DNA of 64,000 nucleotides from Microcoleus sp. (GCA_042408215.1 JAYFMW010000006.1:576001-640000); one strand, 5' to 3'; positions 1,368-46,103 are shown, counted from the stretch's first letter. Numbers and translations are program-made. The notes: generated by a model not told the origin, from the letters alone.

Positions 1368-2171
1368 TTACTTGAGCGTAAAATTTTTGTCAAAAGTTTG
1401 GCGTGTACTCGGCTGAGCCACCTCCAACCCTTCCCCGCCCAAAAGTTCTAAAGGCTTGCTTTCCACCGAAATCCAAACCTTGGTATCCGGTTTTAAACTC
1501 GTAGCCGTATAGATAACTTGGCCCAACCGACCGATCATCGAATTGCTGCCTCCCCCCGAAGTAAATTCGGCGGACAAATCGACGTAAACTCCCTGATTCT
1601 TGACACTCAAACTCCTGAGTTTTGTCCCCTTCGGAATTGCGCTAGAAACACTTGCATCCTTCGGCCCAGCCAACAAACTGTTAAAAGCAGCTTGTAGGGT
1701 GGCATCAGGCTTGTCAGCTTCTTTGAGAGCTACTTTGGTAGGAAATACCTCAATTTTGTCGCCCACATCTTTAACCCAGTAGACTTGCACTGTCTGAGCA
1801 GCCGTCGGCTGCACGGGCTTCGGCTGCACGGGCTTCGGATTCAAAGCCTGTGGCGTCTGAGATTGAGACGTTTGAGATTCAGGCGTTTGAACCAGGGGCT
1901 TCTGAACCAGGGGCGTTTGAGCCTGTGGCGTCTGAGACAGGGGCGTTTGGACAGGATTTGGAAGGGGTACGGGAATAATTACAGCAGGGGATTCCGCAGG
2001 AGTTGGGGATAGTGCCGAAGGGGTGGGAGGGGCGGAAGACTGCGTGTCTACCGGGGTTGAGGAACGGTTCGCCGTCCACAAGGCAATTCCCCCTCCCGTC
2101 ACTAAAGCCAACCCGCAAACACCGGCAATCACGGCTGTGGAGACGCGACGTACTTCTTGTCCATCTTTCAT
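1368..2171 (-). CDS. GerMN-domain protein with N-terminal anchor and Pro/Gln-rich linker
   Basis: LLAGP..SSAIPKGTKL..VDLSAEFTSGGGS..QVIYTATS is GerMN-like; start chosen at MKDGQ (ORF track extends to 2252). Confidence 0.8.
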   Translation of the reverse strand: MKDGQEVRRVSTAVIAGVCGLALVTGGGIALWTANRSSTPVDTQSSAPPTPSALSPTPAESPAVIIPVPLPNPVQTPLSQTPQAQTPLVQKPLVQTPESQTSQSQTPQALNPKPVQPKPVQPTAAQTVQVYWVKDVGDKIEVFPTKVALKEADKPDATLQAAFNSLLAGPKDASVSSAIPKGTKLRSLSVKNQGVYVDLSAEFTSGGGSNSMIGRLGQVIYTATSLKPDTKVWISVESKPLELLGGEGLEVAQPSTRQTFDKNFTLK

Positions 2172-2429
2172 AAGAACCTCACGGGAGCATGGAAACCGCG
2201 CACTTTTAGGTCGCGGAGGAAATGCGAATCGGCCAATAAATTTGCCGTCCAACCAGGAAACATGGTAATATCTGGGAGTCTAACAAGACACGGCGACCCT
2301 TGAATAATCGTGAAAAACGGCTCGCCCTGGACGTTAAGTTTAACAGCACTTTCCCCGCCAGAGAGCCAGTTAATCAATCTCAAGGTGAGTGAATCAAAAA
2401 CAACAAAAACCCAGTTAGACATAGAACCT

Positions 2430-2592
2430 TTGACACTCCCCGGCCTGAAGGCACGGGGATTCTTAAGACATTTCGGTCTTAATATCCCTATTTCTAGGGT
2501 TCCCAGGCTGACCACGTTTGCACAAAAATGTGTGTAGTCATATCTCCTCAAAAGTGTTTTGGGCGTATACTTTCCCCCTGTCCAGGGGTAGG
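2430..2592 (-). ncRNA. Putative second omegaRNA/reRNA scaffold
   Basis: 63 nt identical to 2647-2709, plus a diverged 5' part with compensatory stems. Confidence 0.55.
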
Positions 2593-2646
2593 TTTTTAAA
2601 TCTTGTCTGATGCCTTTACGTTGGCCACACACTGGTGGGTGCGTGG

Positions 2647-2810
2647 TTGACACTCCCCGGCCTGAAGGCACGGGGATTCTTAAGACATTTCGGTCTTAAT
2701 ATCCCTATTACGCTTAGTTCCCAAACTCACCACGTTTGCTCTTTGAGCGTGGTGATATCTTTTGGGCGTTTAGGTGCAATGCACCAGGTTTCGCGGAGTC
2801 CCCGCGTACA
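2647..2810 (-). ncRNA. Putative TnpB omegaRNA/reRNA scaffold 1 (overlaps tnpB 3' end)
   Basis: Several stem-loops ending at right-end TCAA; position expected for TnpB reRNA; 5' limit approximate. Confidence 0.65.
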
Positions 2811-4093
2811 TCCAAGGCTCTATCTCTAAGGGTTTTTGCAGCACCAATATCAGCGTGTTCGTGGTAGCCACATTCAACACAGATGAATTTTTCACCATCT
2901 CTGTTTGACTTGTCAATATTGCCACAATTTCTGCATTCTTGGCTGGAGTATTTGGGATTGACTTTAATTACGACTTTTCCTTGCTTCGCAGCTAGATACT
3001 CAATCTTTAAAATCAAATCACCCCAACTTGCGTCAGAGATAGAACGATTCAAACCTTTCTTTCTAGATTGTCCATTTTTCAGAAATCTCCCCGTCTTATC
3101 GTCAACCTTTACACGAGTGCGACGCATCATTCCCGAAATATTCAAATCTTCTAACGCAATCCCATCAACTTGACGAGATACAATTTTGTCAGCTGTTTTC
3201 CATTGATAGGCTTGGCGTCGATCGCTATTTTTTTGGTGTAACCTCCCTACTCTTTTCGTTACTTTCTTGCGATTGTTGCTACCTTTAGCTTTGCGACTAA
3301 TTCGTCGCTGTCTAATTTTTAGAGTGCGTTTAGCTTTTTTTGTGGTTGAGAATTTAGGGTTTTCAATCTGATATCCATCAGAAAAATGAACCAGTTTGGT
3401 TAGCCCCAAGTCACACCCAATTACTTTGACAACATCCTTAAGAGACCTCGCAAGGTAATCGGGAACAGACTGATCTTCAATGCGAATAGACACATACCAA
3501 CCATTTTGTCGCTTTCTAATCGCGCCAGCTTTGATGGTAAAGCCATCTGGGATTGGACGTGAGTTGTAGAATCGCATCCACCCTAATTTAGGTAGATAGA
3601 TTTTGTTACCTTGTATTTTTACACCCATTACAAAAGTAAAAGATGTAAAATTACTACGGTTCTTGAATTTAGGAAACCCCCTGCCCTCAAAGAAATTCTT
3701 GTAGGCAGTATCTAAGCGTTTAACATTCTGCTGTAGAACTGTTGAATCTATTGTGCCATACCAAGGTCTAGCTGTTTTTAAATCAGGCAGTGCCGTGATT
3801 TGAATATCGCCAGCACTTCGACGAGGATTTCTAACTTTACCTTCTTTGTCGAATTTAGGAGCTTTCCAGGGATTGCCAGTTGCACCATTTTTACTGACAT
3901 AGCAAGTGAGCGGAGAAGCTTCACTTTGAGTTCTAATGTCACAGTAGTCGCCTTGAATGAACTGTTGGTTATACTGGGTGATTCTATCGTTCAGACACCA
4001 ATTGTAGTGGCTTCTTAACATATCCACCCAGCTCGACATTTTTAAATCTTGCGCTTGGTTAGGACGGAGTTTGTAAACGTAGTTTATTAGCAA
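2714..4093 (-). CDS. tnpB: RNA-guided endonuclease TnpB
   Basis: RuvC motifs GCDLG, LEDLN, HADIGAA and Zn finger CRNC..CVEC; likely TTG start at 4093 after GGAGGT. Confidence 0.93.
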   Translation of the reverse strand: MLINYVYKLRPNQAQDLKMSSWVDMLRSHYNWCLNDRITQYNQQFIQGDYCDIRTQSEASPLTCYVSKNGATGNPWKAPKFDKEGKVRNPRRSAGDIQITALPDLKTARPWYGTIDSTVLQQNVKRLDTAYKNFFEGRGFPKFKNRSNFTSFTFVMGVKIQGNKIYLPKLGWMRFYNSRPIPDGFTIKAGAIRKRQNGWYVSIRIEDQSVPDYLARSLKDVVKVIGCDLGLTKLVHFSDGYQIENPKFSTTKKAKRTLKIRQRRISRKAKGSNNRKKVTKRVGRLHQKNSDRRQAYQWKTADKIVSRQVDGIALEDLNISGMMRRTRVKVDDKTGRFLKNGQSRKKGLNRSISDASWGDLILKIEYLAAKQGKVVIKVNPKYSSQECRNCGNIDKSNRDGEKFICVECGYHEHADIGAAKTLRDRALDVRGDSAKPGALHLNAQKISPRSKSKRGEFGN

Positions 4094-4231
4094 CTTTAAA
4101 TTACCTCCTAAACTGTTTCTATTTGAGAATCTATTTACTTGTTTAGTCAACTAATTGTTATATTACTTAAACTTGGAAAAGCCGTCCTACAAGGACGGGG
4201 TTTTAAACCCAAATTTTTGATAAAGCACTCT

Positions 4232-4412
4232 TTGAAATACTCACCGCCCGGTCGGTGCGGTGATTCTTGACGCTTCACCGACTGATGCTACCGGAGTAGT
4301 CTTACTCTGTCTCTGCGCCCTGAAGCGAGTCGTGGCGATTCCCCATCCCGACTTTTCTCAATTTTAGCTTAAAGTCGTCCTAGAAGGACGGGGCTTGTAT
4401 CCCAGTTTCTTG
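4232..4412 (-). mobile_element. Non-autonomous IS200/IS605 mini-element (181 bp, no ORF)
   Basis: Left-end hairpin cgtcctagaaggacg preceded by TGAC; right end GAAT-caccgc..gcggtg-TCAA. Confidence 0.75.
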
Positions 4413-4438
4413 GTCAAAAAAATCTTTTTTCCCCAAAC

Positions 4439-4470
4439 AAAAAGCGCCCCTATTTCTAGGAGCGCTTTTT
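4439..4470 (-). terminator. Rho-independent terminator after psbA (repeated at 5794-5825, 7150-7181, 8506-8537)
   Basis: aaaaagcgcccctatttctaggagcgcttttt hairpin with A/T tracts on both sides, about 20 nt after each psbA stop. Confidence 0.85.
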
Positions 4471-4489
4471 GTTAATCAAAAGCTAAAAC

Positions 4490-5572
4490 TTAGCCGTTGA
4501 TAGAAGGAGCAACCAAAGCCACAGGAGTTGTTTCACCAGCGGCCAAGTCGAGAGGGAAGTTGTGAGCATTGCGCTCGTGCATGACTTCCATACCCAAGTT
4601 AGCGCGGTTGATGACATCAGCCCAAGTGTTGATGACACGACCTTGAGAGTCGATAATCGATTGGTTGAAGTTGAAACCGTTCAAGTTGAAAGCCATTGTG
4701 GAGATACCCAGTGCTGTGAACCAGATACCGACAACTGGCCATGCACCCAAGAAGAAGTGCAAAGAACGGCTGTTGTTGAAAGAAGCGTATTGGAAAATCA
4801 AACGACCGAAGTAGCCGTGGGCTGCAACGATGTTGTAGGTTTCTTCTTCTTGACCGAATTTGTAACCGTAGTTTTGCGATTCGGTTTCGGTTGTTTCACG
4901 AACCAAGGAAGATGTTACCAAAGAACCGTGCATGGCGGAGAACAAAGAACCACCGAAGACACCAGCAACTCCCAACATATGGAAGGGGTGCATCAGGATG
5001 TTGTGCTCGGCTTGGAACACGATCATGAAGTTGAATGTACCGGAGATACCCAAAGGCATACCGTCTGAGAAGGAGCCTTGTCCGATCGGGTAGATCAAGA
5101 ATACTGCGGTAGCTGCTGCAACTGGTGCAGAGTAGGCTACGCAAATCCAAGGGCGCATTCCTAAGCGGTAGGACAGTTCCCATTCACGACCCATGTAGCA
5201 AAATACACCGATCAGGAAGTGGAAAATTACCAATTGGTAAGGGCCGCCGTTGTACAACCACTCATCGAGGGAAGCAGCTTCCCAGATTGGGTAGAAGTGA
5301 AGACCGATGGCGTTAGACGAAGGAACAACAGCACCTGTGATGATGTTGTTACCGAACATCAAGGAACCAGCCACTGGTTCGCGGATGCCGTCGATGTCTA
5401 CAGGAGGTGCACCAATGAAGGCGACGATGTAGCAGATGGTGGCGCTTAAGAGGGTAGGAATCATCAAGACGCCGAACCAACCGATATAAATCCGGTTGTC
5501 TGTGCTTGTGACCCACTCGCAGAAGCGTTCCCAGACATTGGCGCTTTCGCGTTGTTGTAAGGTTGTTGTCAT
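4490..5572 (-). CDS. psbA: Photosystem II D1 protein, copy 1
   Basis: 360 aa, [18 protein letters not shown]..; Glu130 (GREWELS). Confidence 0.99.
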
Positions 5573-5621
5573 TTGTTTATGATTGCTGTATTTGGTTGTC
5601 AATGTTCGGATGATGTCTCTA

Positions 5622-5650
5622 TTATTACGGTAATCACTCTGGTTTGTAAA
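5622..5650 (-). promoter_or_regulatory. psbA promoter TTTACA-N17-TAATAA (same sequence upstream of copies 1-3)
   Basis: Sigma70-like boxes about 50 nt upstream of ATG; TTTACA -35 is typical of psbA promoters. Confidence 0.6.
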
Positions 5651-5844
5651 GGGGTTTGGCGACAGTTAAACTGATGACGGTGATAAGTTTTGGTTATCGG
5701 ACGTTGGATTGCTTGCTGTGTCTGAAGAAACGTAGTTTAAATAAATAAGAAACTCAGCCACAAAGAACGTTAGAAAAATCTTTTTTCCCAAACAAAAAGC
5801 GCCCCTATTTCTAGGAGCGCTTTTTGTTAATCAAAAGCTAAAAC

Positions 5845-6927
5845 TTAGCCGTTGATAGAAGGAGCAACCAAAGCCACAGGAGTTGTTTCACCAGCGGCCA
5901 AGTCGAGAGGGAAGTTGTGAGCATTGCGCTCGTGCATGACTTCCATACCCAAGTTAGCGCGGTTGATGACATCAGCCCAAGTGTTGATGACACGACCTTG
6001 AGAGTCGATAATTGATTGGTTGAAGTTGAAACCGTTCAAGTTGAAAGCCATTGTGGAGATACCCAGTGCTGTGAACCAGATACCGACAACTGGCCATGCA
6101 CCCAAGAAGAAGTGCAAAGAACGGCTGTTGTTGAAAGAAGCGTATTGGAAAATCAAACGACCGAAGTAGCCGTGGGCTGCAACGATGTTGTAGGTTTCTT
6201 CTTCTTGACCGAATTTGTAACCGTAGTTTTGCGATTCGGTTTCAGTTGTTTCACGAACCAAGGAAGATGTTACCAAAGAACCGTGCATGGCGGAGAACAA
6301 GCTACCACCGAAGACACCAGCAACTCCCAACATGTGGAAGGGGTGCATCAGGATGTTGTGCTCAGCTTGGAACACGATCATGAAGTTGAATGTACCGGAG
6401 ATACCCAAAGGCATACCGTCAGAGAAGGAGCCTTGTCCGATCGGGTAGATCAAGAATACTGCGGTAGCTGCTGCAACTGGTGCAGAGTAGGCTACGCAAA
6501 TCCAAGGGCGCATTCCTAAGCGGTAGGACAGTTCCCATTCACGACCCATGTAGCAAAATACACCGATCAGGAAGTGGAAAATTACCAATTGGTAAGGGCC
6601 GCCGTTGTACAACCACTCATCGAGGGAAGCAGCTTCCCAGATTGGGTAGAAGTGAAGACCGATCGCGTTAGAAGAAGGAACAACAGCACCTGTGATGATG
6701 TTGTTACCGAACATCAAGGAACCAGCCACTGGTTCGCGGATGCCGTCGATGTCTACAGGAGGTGCACCAATGAAGGCGACGATGTAGCAGATGGTGGCGC
6801 TTAAGAGGGTAGGAATCATCAAGACGCCGAACCAACCGATATAAATCCGGTTGTCTGTGCTTGTGACCCACTCGCAGAAGCGTTCCCAGACATTGGCGCT
6901 TTCGCGTTGTTGTAAGGTTGTTGTCAT
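5845..6927 (-). CDS. psbA: Photosystem II D1 protein, copy 2
   Basis: Protein identical to copy 1. Confidence 0.99.
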
Positions 6928-7200
6928 GTTGTTTATGATTGCTGTATTTGGTTGTCAATGTTCGGATGATGTCTCTATTATTACGGTAATCACTCTGGTT
7001 TGTAAAGGGGTTTGGCGACAGTTAAACTGATGACGGTGATAAGTTTTGGTTATCGGACGTTGGATTGCTTGCTGTGTCTGAAGAAACGTAGTTTAAATAA
7101 ATAAGAAACTCAGCCACAAAGAACGTTAGAAAAATCTTTTTTCCCAAACAAAAAGCGCCCCTATTTCTAGGAGCGCTTTTTGTTAATCAAAAGCTAAAAC

Positions 7201-8283
7201 TTAGCCGTTGATAGAAGGAGCAACCAAAGCCACAGGAGTTGTTTCACCAGCGGCCAAGTCGAGAGGGAAGTTGTGAGCATTGCGCTCGTGCATGACTTCC
7301 ATACCCAAGTTAGCGCGGTTGATGACATCAGCCCAAGTGTTGATGACACGACCTTGAGAGTCGATAATTGATTGGTTGAAGTTGAAACCGTTCAAGTTGA
7401 AAGCCATTGTGGAGATACCCAGTGCTGTGAACCAGATACCGACAACTGGCCATGCACCCAAGAAGAAGTGCAAAGAACGGCTGTTGTTGAAAGAAGCGTA
7501 TTGGAAAATCAAACGACCGAAGTAGCCGTGGGCTGCAACGATGTTGTAGGTTTCTTCTTCTTGACCGAATTTGTAACCGTAGTTTTGCGATTCGGTTTCG
7601 GTTGTTTCACGAACCAAGGAAGATGTTACCAAAGAACCGTGCATGGCGGAGAACAAAGAACCACCGAAGACACCAGCAACTCCCAACATATGGAAGGGGT
7701 GCATCAGGATGTTGTGCTCGGCTTGGAACACGATCATGAAGTTGAATGTACCGGAGATACCCAAAGGCATACCGTCTGAGAATGAGCCTTGTCCGATCGG
7801 GTAGATCAAGAATACTGCGGTAGCGGCTGCAACTGGTGCAGAGTATGCTACGCAAATCCAAGGGCGCATTCCTAAGCGGTAGGACAATTCCCATTCACGA
7901 CCCATGTAGCAAAATACACCGATCAGGAAGTGGAAAATTACCAATTGGTAAGGGCCGCCGTTGTACAACCACTCATCGAGGGAAGCAGCTTCCCAGATTG
8001 GGTAGAAGTGTAAGCCGATCGCGTTAGACGAAGGAACAACAGCACCTGTGATGATGTTGTTACCGAACATCAAGGAACCAGCCACTGGTTCGCGGATGCC
8101 GTCGATGTCTACAGGAGGTGCACCAATGAAGGCGACGATGTAGCAGATGGTGGCGCTTAAGAGGGTAGGAATCATCAAGACGCCGAACCAACCGATATAA
8201 ATCCGGTTGTCTGTGCTTGTGACCCATTCACAGAAGCGTTCCCAGACATTGGCGCTTTCGCGTTGTTGTAAGGTTGTTGTCAT
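7201..8283 (-). CDS. psbA: Photosystem II D1 protein, copy 3
   Basis: Protein identical to copy 1. Confidence 0.99.
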
Positions 8284-8556
8284 TTGTTTATGATTGCTGT
8301 ATTTGGTTGTCAATGTTCGGATGATGTCTCTATTATTACGGTAATCACTCTGGTTTGTAAAGGGGTTTGGCGACAGTTAAACTGATGACGGTGATAAGTT
8401 TTGGTTATCGGACGTTGGATTGCTTGCTGTGTCTGAAGAAACGTAGTTTAAATAAATAAGAAACTCAGCCACAAAGAACGTTAGAAAAATCTTTTTTCCC
8501 CAAACAAAAAGCGCCCCTATTTCTAGGAGCGCTTTTTGTTAATCAAAAGCTAAAAC

Positions 8557-34711: not shown

Positions 34712-35986
34712 CTGCTTCGTAAAACTTACCCAAACTTAACTAAAGCCATCTTTAGCCAAAATTCAGAACTCACTTCCTGCGCTGTTGGGTGGTCGGCCAT
34801 CCCAAGATAAGCAGGCTATCCCCCAATAGCCTTGGGTTCCCAATTTAAAATATTCAAACTGGCATTTAAATCGCGGTCTATCAACACGCCGCCAGCCGGA
34901 CAATTATAAATCCTTTCGGCTAAAGGCAGATCTTTTTTATGCCCGCAATTGGCACAAATCTTAGAACTGGGAAACCATCGATCTATCAGCACTAAGCTCG
35001 CTCCATACATTTTGCACTTGTACTCTAGCTGTCGCCTGAATTCGTAAAAACCTAAGTCGGATATTGCCAGAGCTAACTTGTGATTTGCCAGCAAGCCTCT
35101 AACATTCAAGTCTTCAATCTTAATTAGCTTGAAAGTTTTAGCCAAATAAGTTGTCAACTTGTGAAGGAAGTCTTTACGAATGCAGGCTATCGTCCGCGCG
35201 AGCCTGCCGATCTTGTTGTAAGTTTTGCGCTGGTTGTTTGAGCCTTTTATTTGCCTTGACGCCTTTCCCTGCAACCGCGCAAGCTTGGTTTTCGCTTGCT
35301 TTAGGGGTTTTGGCGCATCAAATACTTGACTGTTTGATAGGGTGACAAAAGATTTAACACCTACGTCAATTCCTACAGAACCTTCAGGTTGTTGCACTGG
35401 CAAACGTTGGGCATCAACACAAAAAGAAACAAACCAGCGATTTCCTTCTTTTGAAATGGTCAAAGTTTGAGATGCAAACCCATGCGGCAGTGGCTCGTGA
35501 AGCCGAAAAGTCCCCAAAGTAGGAATCTTGATGCTGTTGCCAGATTTTAGTAGAACTTTTCCATTAGAAGAATCAACCGTGAATGATTGCCCGTCTCGGC
35601 GGCTGGCAAATTTTGGATGGGCGGCTTTTCCCAAGCGATACCGACTGAACGCTTCTTTCAAGTCAATCAAAGCGTTTTGGTAAACTCGACTGGACAACTG
35701 GTTCATCCAAGCGCATTCAGGTTGTTTCTTGACGTGATTGGTAAGAACTTTCTTGACTTCGTTGATGACCTTTGAGTCTGAAAACTCACCTGCACCGTAC
35801 ATTTGGACTCGCAAGCTCAAACCCATGTTAAATACTACACGCCGAAATCCTGCGTGTTTTGCCATCAAGGTCGCTTCCCTATTATTCAATTTGAGCGCTC
35901 GCTTGACGGCAAACATGGTTAAACCTCCTCTCGGTAATTAACTGTGGACAAGTTTAGTAAACTATTTGGCACTTAAGTCCAACTCC
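34712..35986 (-). mobile_element. tnpA-less TnpB element, probably IS607-derived
   Basis: No IS605-type hairpin ends; short-repeat-rich ends with an AG dinucleotide at both junctions; boundaries approximate. Confidence 0.55.
34816..35916 (-). CDS. tnpB: RNA-guided endonuclease TnpB
   Basis: GIDVG, IEDL and DRDLNAS RuvC motifs; Zn finger CANC..CPAG lacks the last Cys. Confidence 0.92.
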   Translation of the reverse strand: MFAVKRALKLNNREATLMAKHAGFRRVVFNMGLSLRVQMYGAGEFSDSKVINEVKKVLTNHVKKQPECAWMNQLSSRVYQNALIDLKEAFSRYRLGKAAHPKFASRRDGQSFTVDSSNGKVLLKSGNSIKIPTLGTFRLHEPLPHGFASQTLTISKEGNRWFVSFCVDAQRLPVQQPEGSVGIDVGVKSFVTLSNSQVFDAPKPLKQAKTKLARLQGKASRQIKGSNNQRKTYNKIGRLARTIACIRKDFLHKLTTYLAKTFKLIKIEDLNVRGLLANHKLALAISDLGFYEFRRQLEYKCKMYGASLVLIDRWFPSSKICANCGHKKDLPLAERIYNCPAGGVLIDRDLNASLNILNWEPKAIGG

Positions 35987-44513: not shown

Positions 44514-46103
44514 TGACATACTCCCACATCAAATCTGAGTACAGATTATGATGTGGGCTTCTTAACAGCCCGATGAAGGGTATGTAAGATTTCCTTGATG
44601 GTACTGTTATCCATAGTTCCTACTATAGAAAGATTCCCACTAGGGCGTTTTATACTGGGGAAAATGTCCAACCCCAGTCTTTTTAGGTTAATCGCAGCAT
44701 TAAGATCGCGATCTACCATCAAAGAATTTTGCTCGTCCCAATACTCTCGAATATTGCAGTCGGTGAAAACCATTTCATTCCGATAACACAGAAGCATTGA
44801 GGTGTAAGCAGGTTTTTGTGAAACGACGACTGCCCCAGTTTTTTCTACTATGTAGCTCAGCGTCGTAAAAAATTGCCCAAAAGCTGCATCCAGCCAGGAT
44901 TTATTCAATCCAGATTTAGCGGATTGCCCATTGGGTAAATATTTCCCATCCTCATCTTGTTTAACCTTGTTTCTTTTAGTTAAACCTTTGAGGTTTAAGT
45001 CTTCATGGAAGAAGAACTTAGCTCCCGTTCTGACTAATTTGTGAGCTGTTTTATAATGAAAGTCTTGGCGACAACGCGCAATCTTTTGATGCTGTCTCGC
45101 CTCTTTTTTTGCCAACTTTCGTCGGGCTTTAGACCTTCTTTTTCGTTGATTCCGCTTCAGGGAAATGCGGTCTAATTTAGCTTGATTCTTTCGGAGTGGC
45201 TTGAGGGAAGGTAATTTCTCACCCTCAGATGTCGCTAGATAAACATTTTCGTGTAACACTGCATCTAAACCGATTGAATTCTCCCAAGTGGGAGCAATTT
45301 TATCCGGTGTCAATTCAGGCACAGAAGTGTCTTCAAGTATTAATTGGAGGAACCAACCGTCGGCTTTCCTAGTGACACTCACTTGTTTAATGTTTAAACC
45401 ATCGGGGATGGCACGGTGCATCCGCACCTGGATAAACCCTAGTTTTGGCAATCGAATGTAAATCCAATTCTTGCGAATTAATTTAATCCAATCGTCCCTA
45501 GCCGTTGCCAAAGTCATTGTTCGGTAGTCGGCTTCAGTTTTGAATCGGGGTCTACCCGATCGCGCACCTTTGCTGTCACCGACAATAAACCTCTCAAAAG
45601 CTCGATCGACTCGTTTGGAAACGTCTTGCATAATCGTTGAATCGACTTGCTTAAAGTCTAATAACTCACCACTATGAAAGACTTTAACCAAATCTTTTTT
45701 TAGAATGGGTAACTGTTGTTTTTGGCAGTAGTAGTTAGGCTTTTCTCTGGGAGCCGCAATACTGGTTTTCAAGGGACAAGCATTGATAGCAGTACGGTTC
45801 ATTTCCCACCAATCAAAACGATCTCCCAATTGGCGATTGTACCAATAACGGCAAATTCTGAGCCATTGGTTGAGAGCTAGCTTTTGATTAGTGTCGGGAT
45901 AGAACTTGTACTGATATGTCGCCTTCATTGAATTGCCGTTTTTTGTTAGTATTATTTTACCAGGATTTGTTGGTCTCGTCATCCATCCGCCCACTCCTCA
46001 AAGCTATGCTTTGAGATTGTGAACAGATGGAATCCTCACCTCACACGCCTTTCATCCCACACTAACCGAGGCGGTATAGTGTGGGGATTCCCGTCTGTCT
46101 AGC
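44514..46103 (-). mobile_element. IS200/IS605-family tnpA-less element
   Basis: Right end GAAG-cccacatc..gatgtggg-TCAC; left-end hairpin cccacacta..tagtgtggg at 46058-46087; left boundary approximate. Confidence 0.7.
44546..45928 (-). CDS. tnpB: RNA-guided endonuclease TnpB (Zn-finger-less variant)
   Basis: MKATYQYKFYP start; IGLD, HEDL and DRDLNAA motifs; no CxxC pairs. Confidence 0.9.
   Translation of the reverse strand: MKATYQYKFYPDTNQKLALNQWLRICRYWYNRQLGDRFDWWEMNRTAINACPLKTSIAAPREKPNYYCQKQQLPILKKDLVKVFHSGELLDFKQVDSTIMQDVSKRVDRAFERFIVGDSKGARSGRPRFKTEADYRTMTLATARDDWIKLIRKNWIYIRLPKLGFIQVRMHRAIPDGLNIKQVSVTRKADGWFLQLILEDTSVPELTPDKIAPTWENSIGLDAVLHENVYLATSEGEKLPSLKPLRKNQAKLDRISLKRNQRKRRSKARRKLAKKEARQHQKIARCRQDFHYKTAHKLVRTGAKFFFHEDLNLKGLTKRNKVKQDEDGKYLPNGQSAKSGLNKSWLDAAFGQFFTTLSYIVEKTGAVVVSQKPAYTSMLLCYRNEMVFTDCNIREYWDEQNSLMVDRDLNAAINLKRLGLDIFPSIKRPSGNLSIVGTMDNSTIKEILHTLHRAVKKPTS

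Follow-up and report, generated by a model that had tools for sequence, protein, structure and literature searches.

Element B and its neighbourhood

The window, a 64,000-nucleotide stretch of a Microcoleus sp. genome (GCA_042408215.1, JAYFMW010000006.1:576001-640000; contig C6 of genome G000), carries a Germane-domain (GerMN) gene (1368-2252, minus strand) and three tandem minus-strand ORFs of 360-370 aa (4490-8313), which have an 83-nt identical downstream stretch in common and which we take to be psbA copies. The psbA-to-GerMN-gene synteny was kept in genus loci carrying both flanks, with approximately 368 nt between the two genes there versus 2243 nt here. Within this region, the sequence together with an aligned paralogue and orthologues delimited a complete, TnpA-less tnpB element of the IS200/IS605 family (element B; 2647..4219, minus strand, 1573 nt). 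The left end of B began with CAAAAATTTGGG immediately 3' of TTAT (at 4219, GCTTTAT followed by CAAAAATTTGGGTTTAAAACCCCGTCCTTGTAGGACGGC) and carried a subterminal hairpin (CCCCGTCCTTGTAGGACGG; left end at 4178..4219, minus strand) that belongs to a repeat family, its architecture being that seen in mini-elements and orthologues. The right end was TCAA. Alignments with the paralogue (C5:672616-674068) and with orthologues in other genomes stopped at the right-end base of B, and the right ends of B-type loci all terminated in GTGTCAA.

Upstream of B, in tandem and 12 bases away, lay a tnpB-less mini-element (mini-element A; 4232..4412, minus strand), recognized from repeats, blastn and sequence; it carries left-end hairpin 2 and a right end of its own, ATTTCAA, which stops at 4232. 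The last four bases of the intervening spacer (AGAGTGCTTTAT; 4220..4231, minus strand) are the TTAT motif used by B. Mini-element A sits just behind the psbA terminator hairpin (4436-4473). Since A adds to B and to the copy of a further mini-element family, M, that follows B, three mobile units stand in a row in one intergenic region. Beyond them, the 256 nt that separate the Germane-domain gene from the outer right end (2174-2429) had no other genomic copy and gave no alignment to any genus relative, even one 97% identical in the coding part. Similarity to relatives resumed at ...TTATGAAAGATGG, and the upstream region of the Germane-domain gene has been replaced.

The tnpB coding sequence (2714..4096, minus strand; 460 aa), identified from Pfam, structure matches, and orthologues, has a TTG start behind AGGAGG. 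Domains HTH_OrfB_IS605 (PF12323), OrfB_IS605 (PF01385), and Cas12f1-like_TNB (PF07282) were all found above curated cut-offs, the protein matched ISDra2-type TnpB structures (E 7.6e-29), and orthologues with 75-87% identity aligned from residue 1-2. Its GCDLG, ALEDLN, and HADIGAA motifs, presumably holding the RuvC D-E-D catalytic residues, aligned with GVDLG, AVEDLN, and RDENAA of the best solved relative, in agreement with the original prediction of an apparently intact catalytic triad. Left ends were located by regular expression in 10 of the 30 loci examined, and the TAM count rests on those 10: TTAT preceded nine and TTGT one. Because TTAT precedes nine of the 10 located left ends, the family TAM is TTAT, and the earlier guess of a TTAT-like TAM was borne out.

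ISDra2-type tnpB elements, reportedly described by Karvelis in 2021, have a right-end-encoded omegaRNA (reRNA). The ISDra2 TAM is TTGAT and, in this respect, B with its TTAT is different. B resembles the tnpB-only IS200/IS605 elements covered in part of Meers 2023 (PMC10055086) in its TnpB domains and D-E-D motifs, in its two asymmetric ends, which carry subterminal hairpins, in its insertion 3' of a short motif (TTAT), in a TCAA right end with the guide position outside, and in a TnpA supplied in trans. Unlike usual tnpB elements, its right flank is another mobile element rather than host DNA. Across the genome, the Y1 transposase profile (PF01797) gave 20 matches, 19 of them over cut-off and none inside element B, and TnpB tblastn pieces numbered well over 100. 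A right-end profile located 110 genomic sites, of which 20 stood behind a tnpB and 90 were unlinked, linkage being judged with one TnpB query. Elsewhere in the window, two distant TnpB-like tblastn matches (26-29% identity, minus strand) were recorded at 34939-35709 and 44798-45916.

Two right-end units with a common fold

A repeat search of the window confirmed the identical 63-nt stretch that had been reported at 2430-2492 and 2647-2709 (direct repeat, 100% identity, spacing 217), each copy having its TCAA end on the minus strand. The minus-strand terminus of both copies was ...GAATCCCCGTGCCTTCAGGCCGGGGAGTGTCAA, also given as ...GGGGAGTGTCAA, and the sequence 3' of it was CCACGCACCCACCAGTGTG for one copy and AGGTTCTATGTCTAACTGG for the other (also written CCACGCACCC... 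and AGGTTCTATG...). An exact search for the 63-mer, and even for its last 20 nt, found no third site in the 7.36-Mb genome. The inner copy (2647..2709, minus strand) spans the right-end terminal hairpins to TCAA and belongs to a right-end module of approximately 183 nt (2647..2829, minus strand) that overlaps the 3' end of tnpB and, based on fold and covariation, is the putative omegaRNA scaffold of B; its extent was set by the module retained across all mini-element subfamilies. The outer copy (2430..2492, minus strand), delimited by exact repeat and consensus comparison and probably converted to the sequence of the inner element, terminates a 217-nt outer unit (2430..2646, minus strand) containing a complete scaffold-like module and right end.

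Folding predictions gave the same hairpin series for both 150-nt scaffolds (-50.2 kcal/mol with z -3.76 and -51.1 kcal/mol with z -3.87), so that the proposal of a like layout with compensatory stems was right, and the possibility raised with it, that the outer unit would not fold like the inner, was not what we found. Both units likewise contained the common motifs ACGCCCAAAA and TGGGAAC, as well as the stems listed in the original prediction. Across 28 related scaffolds of this genome and its relatives, which included both tnpB-linked and orphan ones, 32 hand-set pairs in five helices were 91.3% paired compared with 37-49% for slid partners, a structure derived from the inner unit and therefore biased in its favour. 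Seventeen pairs changed on both sides, and the observed values were reached by 0 of 500 shuffles, a test inflated by the relatedness of the sequences. Two of the hairpins may be retained for TnpA at the DNA level. An Rfam scan of 2200-4500 (E<=1) returned no scaffold match and only two weak chance matches at the psbA terminator, both to an Enterococcus sRNA.

Given that assemblers can create or collapse exact repeats, we considered whether assembly could have produced the duplication. Run X17, which comes from another study, has a unitig made up of the 63 nt at a depth of 30.2 against 13.7 and 19.1 in the neighbours, and the junction of the right end with CCACGC occurred in contigs of X17 (2593-2676) and of RNA library X1 (2585-2676), which enter the repeat by 30 letters only, one below the bridging rule. 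Moreover, the 154 nt between the repeats are specific to family M and are not a copy of the inner unit. The single-copy form was present in the assemblies of two RNA libraries, X3 and X8, from two studies, each of which has a contig that runs from 2429 straight into 2647, with 63 letters that match either side; this join may represent either loss of a unit by recombination between the repeats or k-mer collapse across the repeat. Taken with the depth and junction contigs, an artefact is extremely improbable, and the tandem is treated below as real. In library X1 the stretch was completely covered and depth was flat, a pattern that DNA in the library could also produce, and X3 and X8 had zero cover of the M-specific positions 2526-2594. 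In X8, a size-fractionated RNA library, the bin 2664-2732 over the 3' half of the inner scaffold had a depth sum of 310 compared with 4-28 nearby, and this depth may stem from related elements. All four sequencing runs are contigs and were counted neither for nor against a two-guide transcript.

A truncated member of mini-element family M

Using blastn with 2300-4500, all 217 nt between the two TCAA ends (2646 to 2430) were found to recur in full at six other genomic places with 91-94% identity (C6:75752, C5:534263, C11:62641, C28:327427, C17:757118, and C8:86323). Five of these six copies extend upstream into a common 93-nt left end that starts after TTTAT (four copies) or CGAT (one copy) and reads CAGAAAATTGGGTTGAAAACCCCGTCCTTATAGGACGGC ... 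GGGTAGACATAT, then CCACGCACCC...; the C11 copy ends at a different point, having been cut 14 nt further upstream. Because five copies continue into this common left end, the 217 nt are the 3' part of a 310-nt tnpB-less family, M. In the window the left end is absent, and the first base of the M copy directly follows the inner TCAA. The break falls after the M-internal ...GGGTAGACATAT (...ACATAT), one base off TTAT. Every one of the five genomic occurrences of the 93-nt left end has the 217 nt directly 3'. Family M has no ORF and comprises seven copies of the 217-nt module with differing flanks, plus related subfamilies (C20 twice, C14, C30, and the more distant C6:849312 and C17:201352) that have only the last ~183 nt in common with it, a part that is a scaffold-sized module. 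In relatives, M-type scaffolds were without a linked tnpB in 11 of 11 loci.

On this comparison of sequences, the outer unit is a truncated copy of a tnpB-less mini-element descended from a related tnpB element. The original prediction had alternatively envisaged the relic of an older tnpB element with its 3' part homogenised, and the homogenised 3' part was supported but a decayed resident tnpB was not. The outer scaffold shares homology with tnpB 3' ends, as would be expected if a full-length tnpB element had decayed in place and B had landed beside it later. Yet the 217 nt, with the same 93-nt left end and the same internal deletion point, occur at five other loci with different flanks, and a full tnpB in place of the 217 nt was not found in any genus locus examined. 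Because five other loci carry the same deletion point, the tnpB deletion predates arrival at the window locus, and decay in situ is very unlikely. Most likely, judging from these copies, the outer unit arrived tnpB-less as an ordinary by-product of elements inserting into one another.

Homogenisation was visible when the outer unit was compared with the consensus of the six other M copies. Nine differences occurred in the first 154 positions, four of which are a polymorphism common to two other M copies. In the last 63 positions there were seven differences, and all seven are the bases of B; the other M copies showed 0-1 differences from the consensus in this part, and the C28 copy five. Since the exact 63-mer is confined to two sites and all seven terminal differences are B's bases, we infer that local gene conversion erased the differences between the two adjoining right ends over their last 63 nt.

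The mini-elements resemble a described class: PATE-like elements "often encode omegaRNAs" that are used in trans (Meers 2023, PMC10055086, in part), and parts of Altae-Tran 2023 (PMC10691335) present standalone omegaRNAs as functional in trans. Like these, M is without an ORF, has tnpB-like left and right ends and a scaffold-sized 3' module, and exists in several copies with differing flanks. Unlike them, the window copy lacks one of its two ends, the 93-nt left end of its five siblings, and adjoins the right end of another element flush. Because the left end is lost, the window copy cannot move on its own.

With M defined, the positions taken by the two predicted guides could be placed. The guide position of the inner unit (2627..2646, minus strand) coincides with the 20 nt that open the truncated M copy, as their recurrence in other M copies indicates, and that of the outer unit (2410..2429, minus strand) is unique flanking DNA according to a genome-wide mismatch search. 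The first 16 nt 3' of the inner end were found in the six other M copies, exactly in two, with one mismatch in two, and with two mismatches in two. All six recurrences follow GACATAT, that is, ATAT rather than TTAT. For the 16 nt 3' of the outer end, one other genomic site with two mismatches was found and nothing closer. In the search for guide matches beside a TTAT-like TAM that the original prediction had suggested, the inner guide thus had six matches in M copies, each flanked by ATAT, and the outer guide had its single two-mismatch site. Under the homing model, the inner predicted guide would match the joint left when B alone excises (TTAT+CCACGC...), and the outer predicted guide would match the joint left when B and the 217 nt excise together (TTAT+AGGTTC...). 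Each right end would then be a potential omegaRNA gene, with ordinary homing logic applied twice rather than a spacer-acquiring array. The six ATAT-flanked genomic matches of the inner guide constitute a natural test of TAM stringency.

A second junction of this kind was found in the genome. Among 108 right-end matches that reach the terminus, same-strand pairs within 1 kb numbered only two, the window pair and C28:257876/257658, with a spacing of 218. The order at C28 (257650-259530) is a tnpB element, a 17-nt spacer ending in TTAT, a 386-nt tnpB-less mini-element, and the 3' 218 nt of another family, N. The 386-nt element ends ...GAGTGTCAA, and the 218 nt of N start at once (junction 257876/257875). 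Family N has 14 other full copies (93-97% identity), in which the 218 nt are preceded by the N left end, ending ...CCCTCTTTAT with a perfect TAM (TTTAT). A paralogue of the C28 locus with the same outer flanks, C23 (21400-21930), keeps the N left end and has an element related to mini-element A nested exactly at the internal TAM site of N, where ...CTCTAGAT adjoins CAAGAAAATGGG on one side of the guest and GTATGTCAA adjoins GCAAGACAC... on the other. Because C23 holds this A-type element inside N, nested insertion at an internal TAM is directly observed. At the sister locus C28, N has lost its left end. For the C28 tnpB element, the C23 locus also provides an empty site (target ending ...GAGTCAT).

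Origin and possible use of the tandem

We consider it probable that B is a complete element lying flush against a left-end-less M copy and that this arrangement arose by nesting and the use of non-cognate ends, followed by terminal gene conversion. A flush junction between TCAA and flanking DNA is the product of IS200/IS605 insertion 3' of the target motif. The TAM/TEM terms for insertion in this family are those described in part of Meers 2023 (PMC10055086). In the proposed sequence of events, an element would first have inserted into an M copy at the internal ACATAT, a candidate site resembling TTAT. TnpA, supplied in trans, would then have paired non-cognate ends by one of two routes: either the M left end and the right end of the guest were excised together, leaving TTAT followed by the 217 nt, where B inserted later, or the B left end and the M right end moved as one composite to the present TTAT. 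Lastly, gene conversion would have homogenised the last 63 nt of the adjoining right ends, and the present repeats would permit loss of the outer unit by recombination. We found no M copy in the genome that still has a guest at ACATAT, all five left ends being directly joined to the 217 nt. A search of the genus loci for an empty site found no pre-insertion sequence, 2429-2174 aligning to none of them.

The original prediction had read the locus as a scaffold-guide-scaffold-guide array, and this was not supported. What was called guide 1 is M-internal DNA, because the window copy starts at the base after the inner TCAA, and together with the outer scaffold it forms a contiguous piece of a mobile element found in six other places; in all seven copies this inter-unit sequence is continuous M DNA rather than independently acquired spacers between repeats. 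Nor was the arrangement kept in related genomes, since the junction had no spanning match in any of 60 other genomes. Some match was present in 47 of the 61 genomes (G000 included), consisting of the inner unit up to TCAA or of a mini-element part, never both, and 28 of the 29 orthologue loci from other genomes had a single right end. The exception, L074 (G005:C247, 2100-2275), has a right end, 107 nt, and a second right end, and its tnpB belongs to a 53%-identical family; its second unit starts GCAAG, as does family N. Another locus, L012 (G011:C228, 1500-2101), has right ends from two mini-element subfamilies at a distance of 420 nt on the same strand, probably belonging to two complete elements in tandem. 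Searching 79 genus genomes for two right ends separated by 195-225 nt gave G000 twice and three other genomes, compared with three matches for a reversed control; the 80 nt viewed in each of the three non-G000 matches were unlike the 3' parts of M or N. Exact matches to a junction 23-mer and to a 25-mer spanning the outer end and its flank numbered zero in the metagenome_contigs and genome_contigs collections.

Tandem omegaRNA arrangements have precedents: standalone omegaRNAs and omegaRNA-like arrays are already known in print, and in the portions of Altae-Tran 2023 (PMC10691335) bearing on them, irregular omegaRNA-like arrays are said to occur occasionally and arrays are proposed to arise through serial duplication of omegaRNA segments. 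Like these arrays, the window has, downstream of a nuclease gene, a pair of long direct repeats that resemble scaffolds, are sharply bounded on the 3' side and are followed by different sequences. Unlike them, it has only two units, brought together from juxtaposed elements rather than by duplication, and its "spacer" is element-internal and without conservation in relatives. In searches of the literature on tandem or array omegaRNA, cyanobacterial IS605 mini-elements, and TnpB/Cas12 evolution, no paper on the locus was found.

How the tandem arose and how it is used are separate matters, and use as a two-guide array, in which one transcript would run from tnpB to the outer scaffold and TnpB would cut 5' of the second scaffold to give two omegaRNAs, is compatible with an origin by element nesting. 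The outer unit retains the whole scaffold-sized module and the common fold, the minus strand between the units is without a terminator-like site, and TnpB appears catalytically intact from its motifs; in addition, parts of Nety 2023 (PMC10278001) report that TnpB trims the 5' end of the omegaRNA from a longer RNA, and the trans activity of standalone omegaRNAs (Altae-Tran 2023, PMC10691335, in part) points the same way. Against such use stand the lack of conservation in the other genomes searched, the fixed M-internal DNA that would serve as first spacer, and the ATAT rather than TTAT preceding its genomic matches. The RNA-library contigs, which carry neither RNA ends nor strand, do not show transcription of the outer scaffold. 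Overall, we regard a two-guide role as unlikely.

There is a rather slim chance that nesting at TAM-like sites in standalone-omegaRNA mini-elements, combined with the use of non-cognate ends, is a natural route to scaffold-spacer-scaffold-guide loci, here yielding two guides. If so, TnpB would cut a read-through transcript 5' of the second scaffold to give two working guides with a 34-nt spacer-like stretch between, and the locus would be an extant case of the first step in going from an omegaRNA to a CRISPR-type array. Whether TnpA pairs non-cognate ends could be assayed on natural substrates, namely the second junction and the nested intermediate in the same genome. With element nesting and mixed ends as its probable history, the locus illustrates how two guide-RNA scaffolds would come to stand head to tail behind tnpB without duplication or spacer capture, and a comparison with the mini-element families of the whole genome is advisable before tandem right ends are named proto-arrays.
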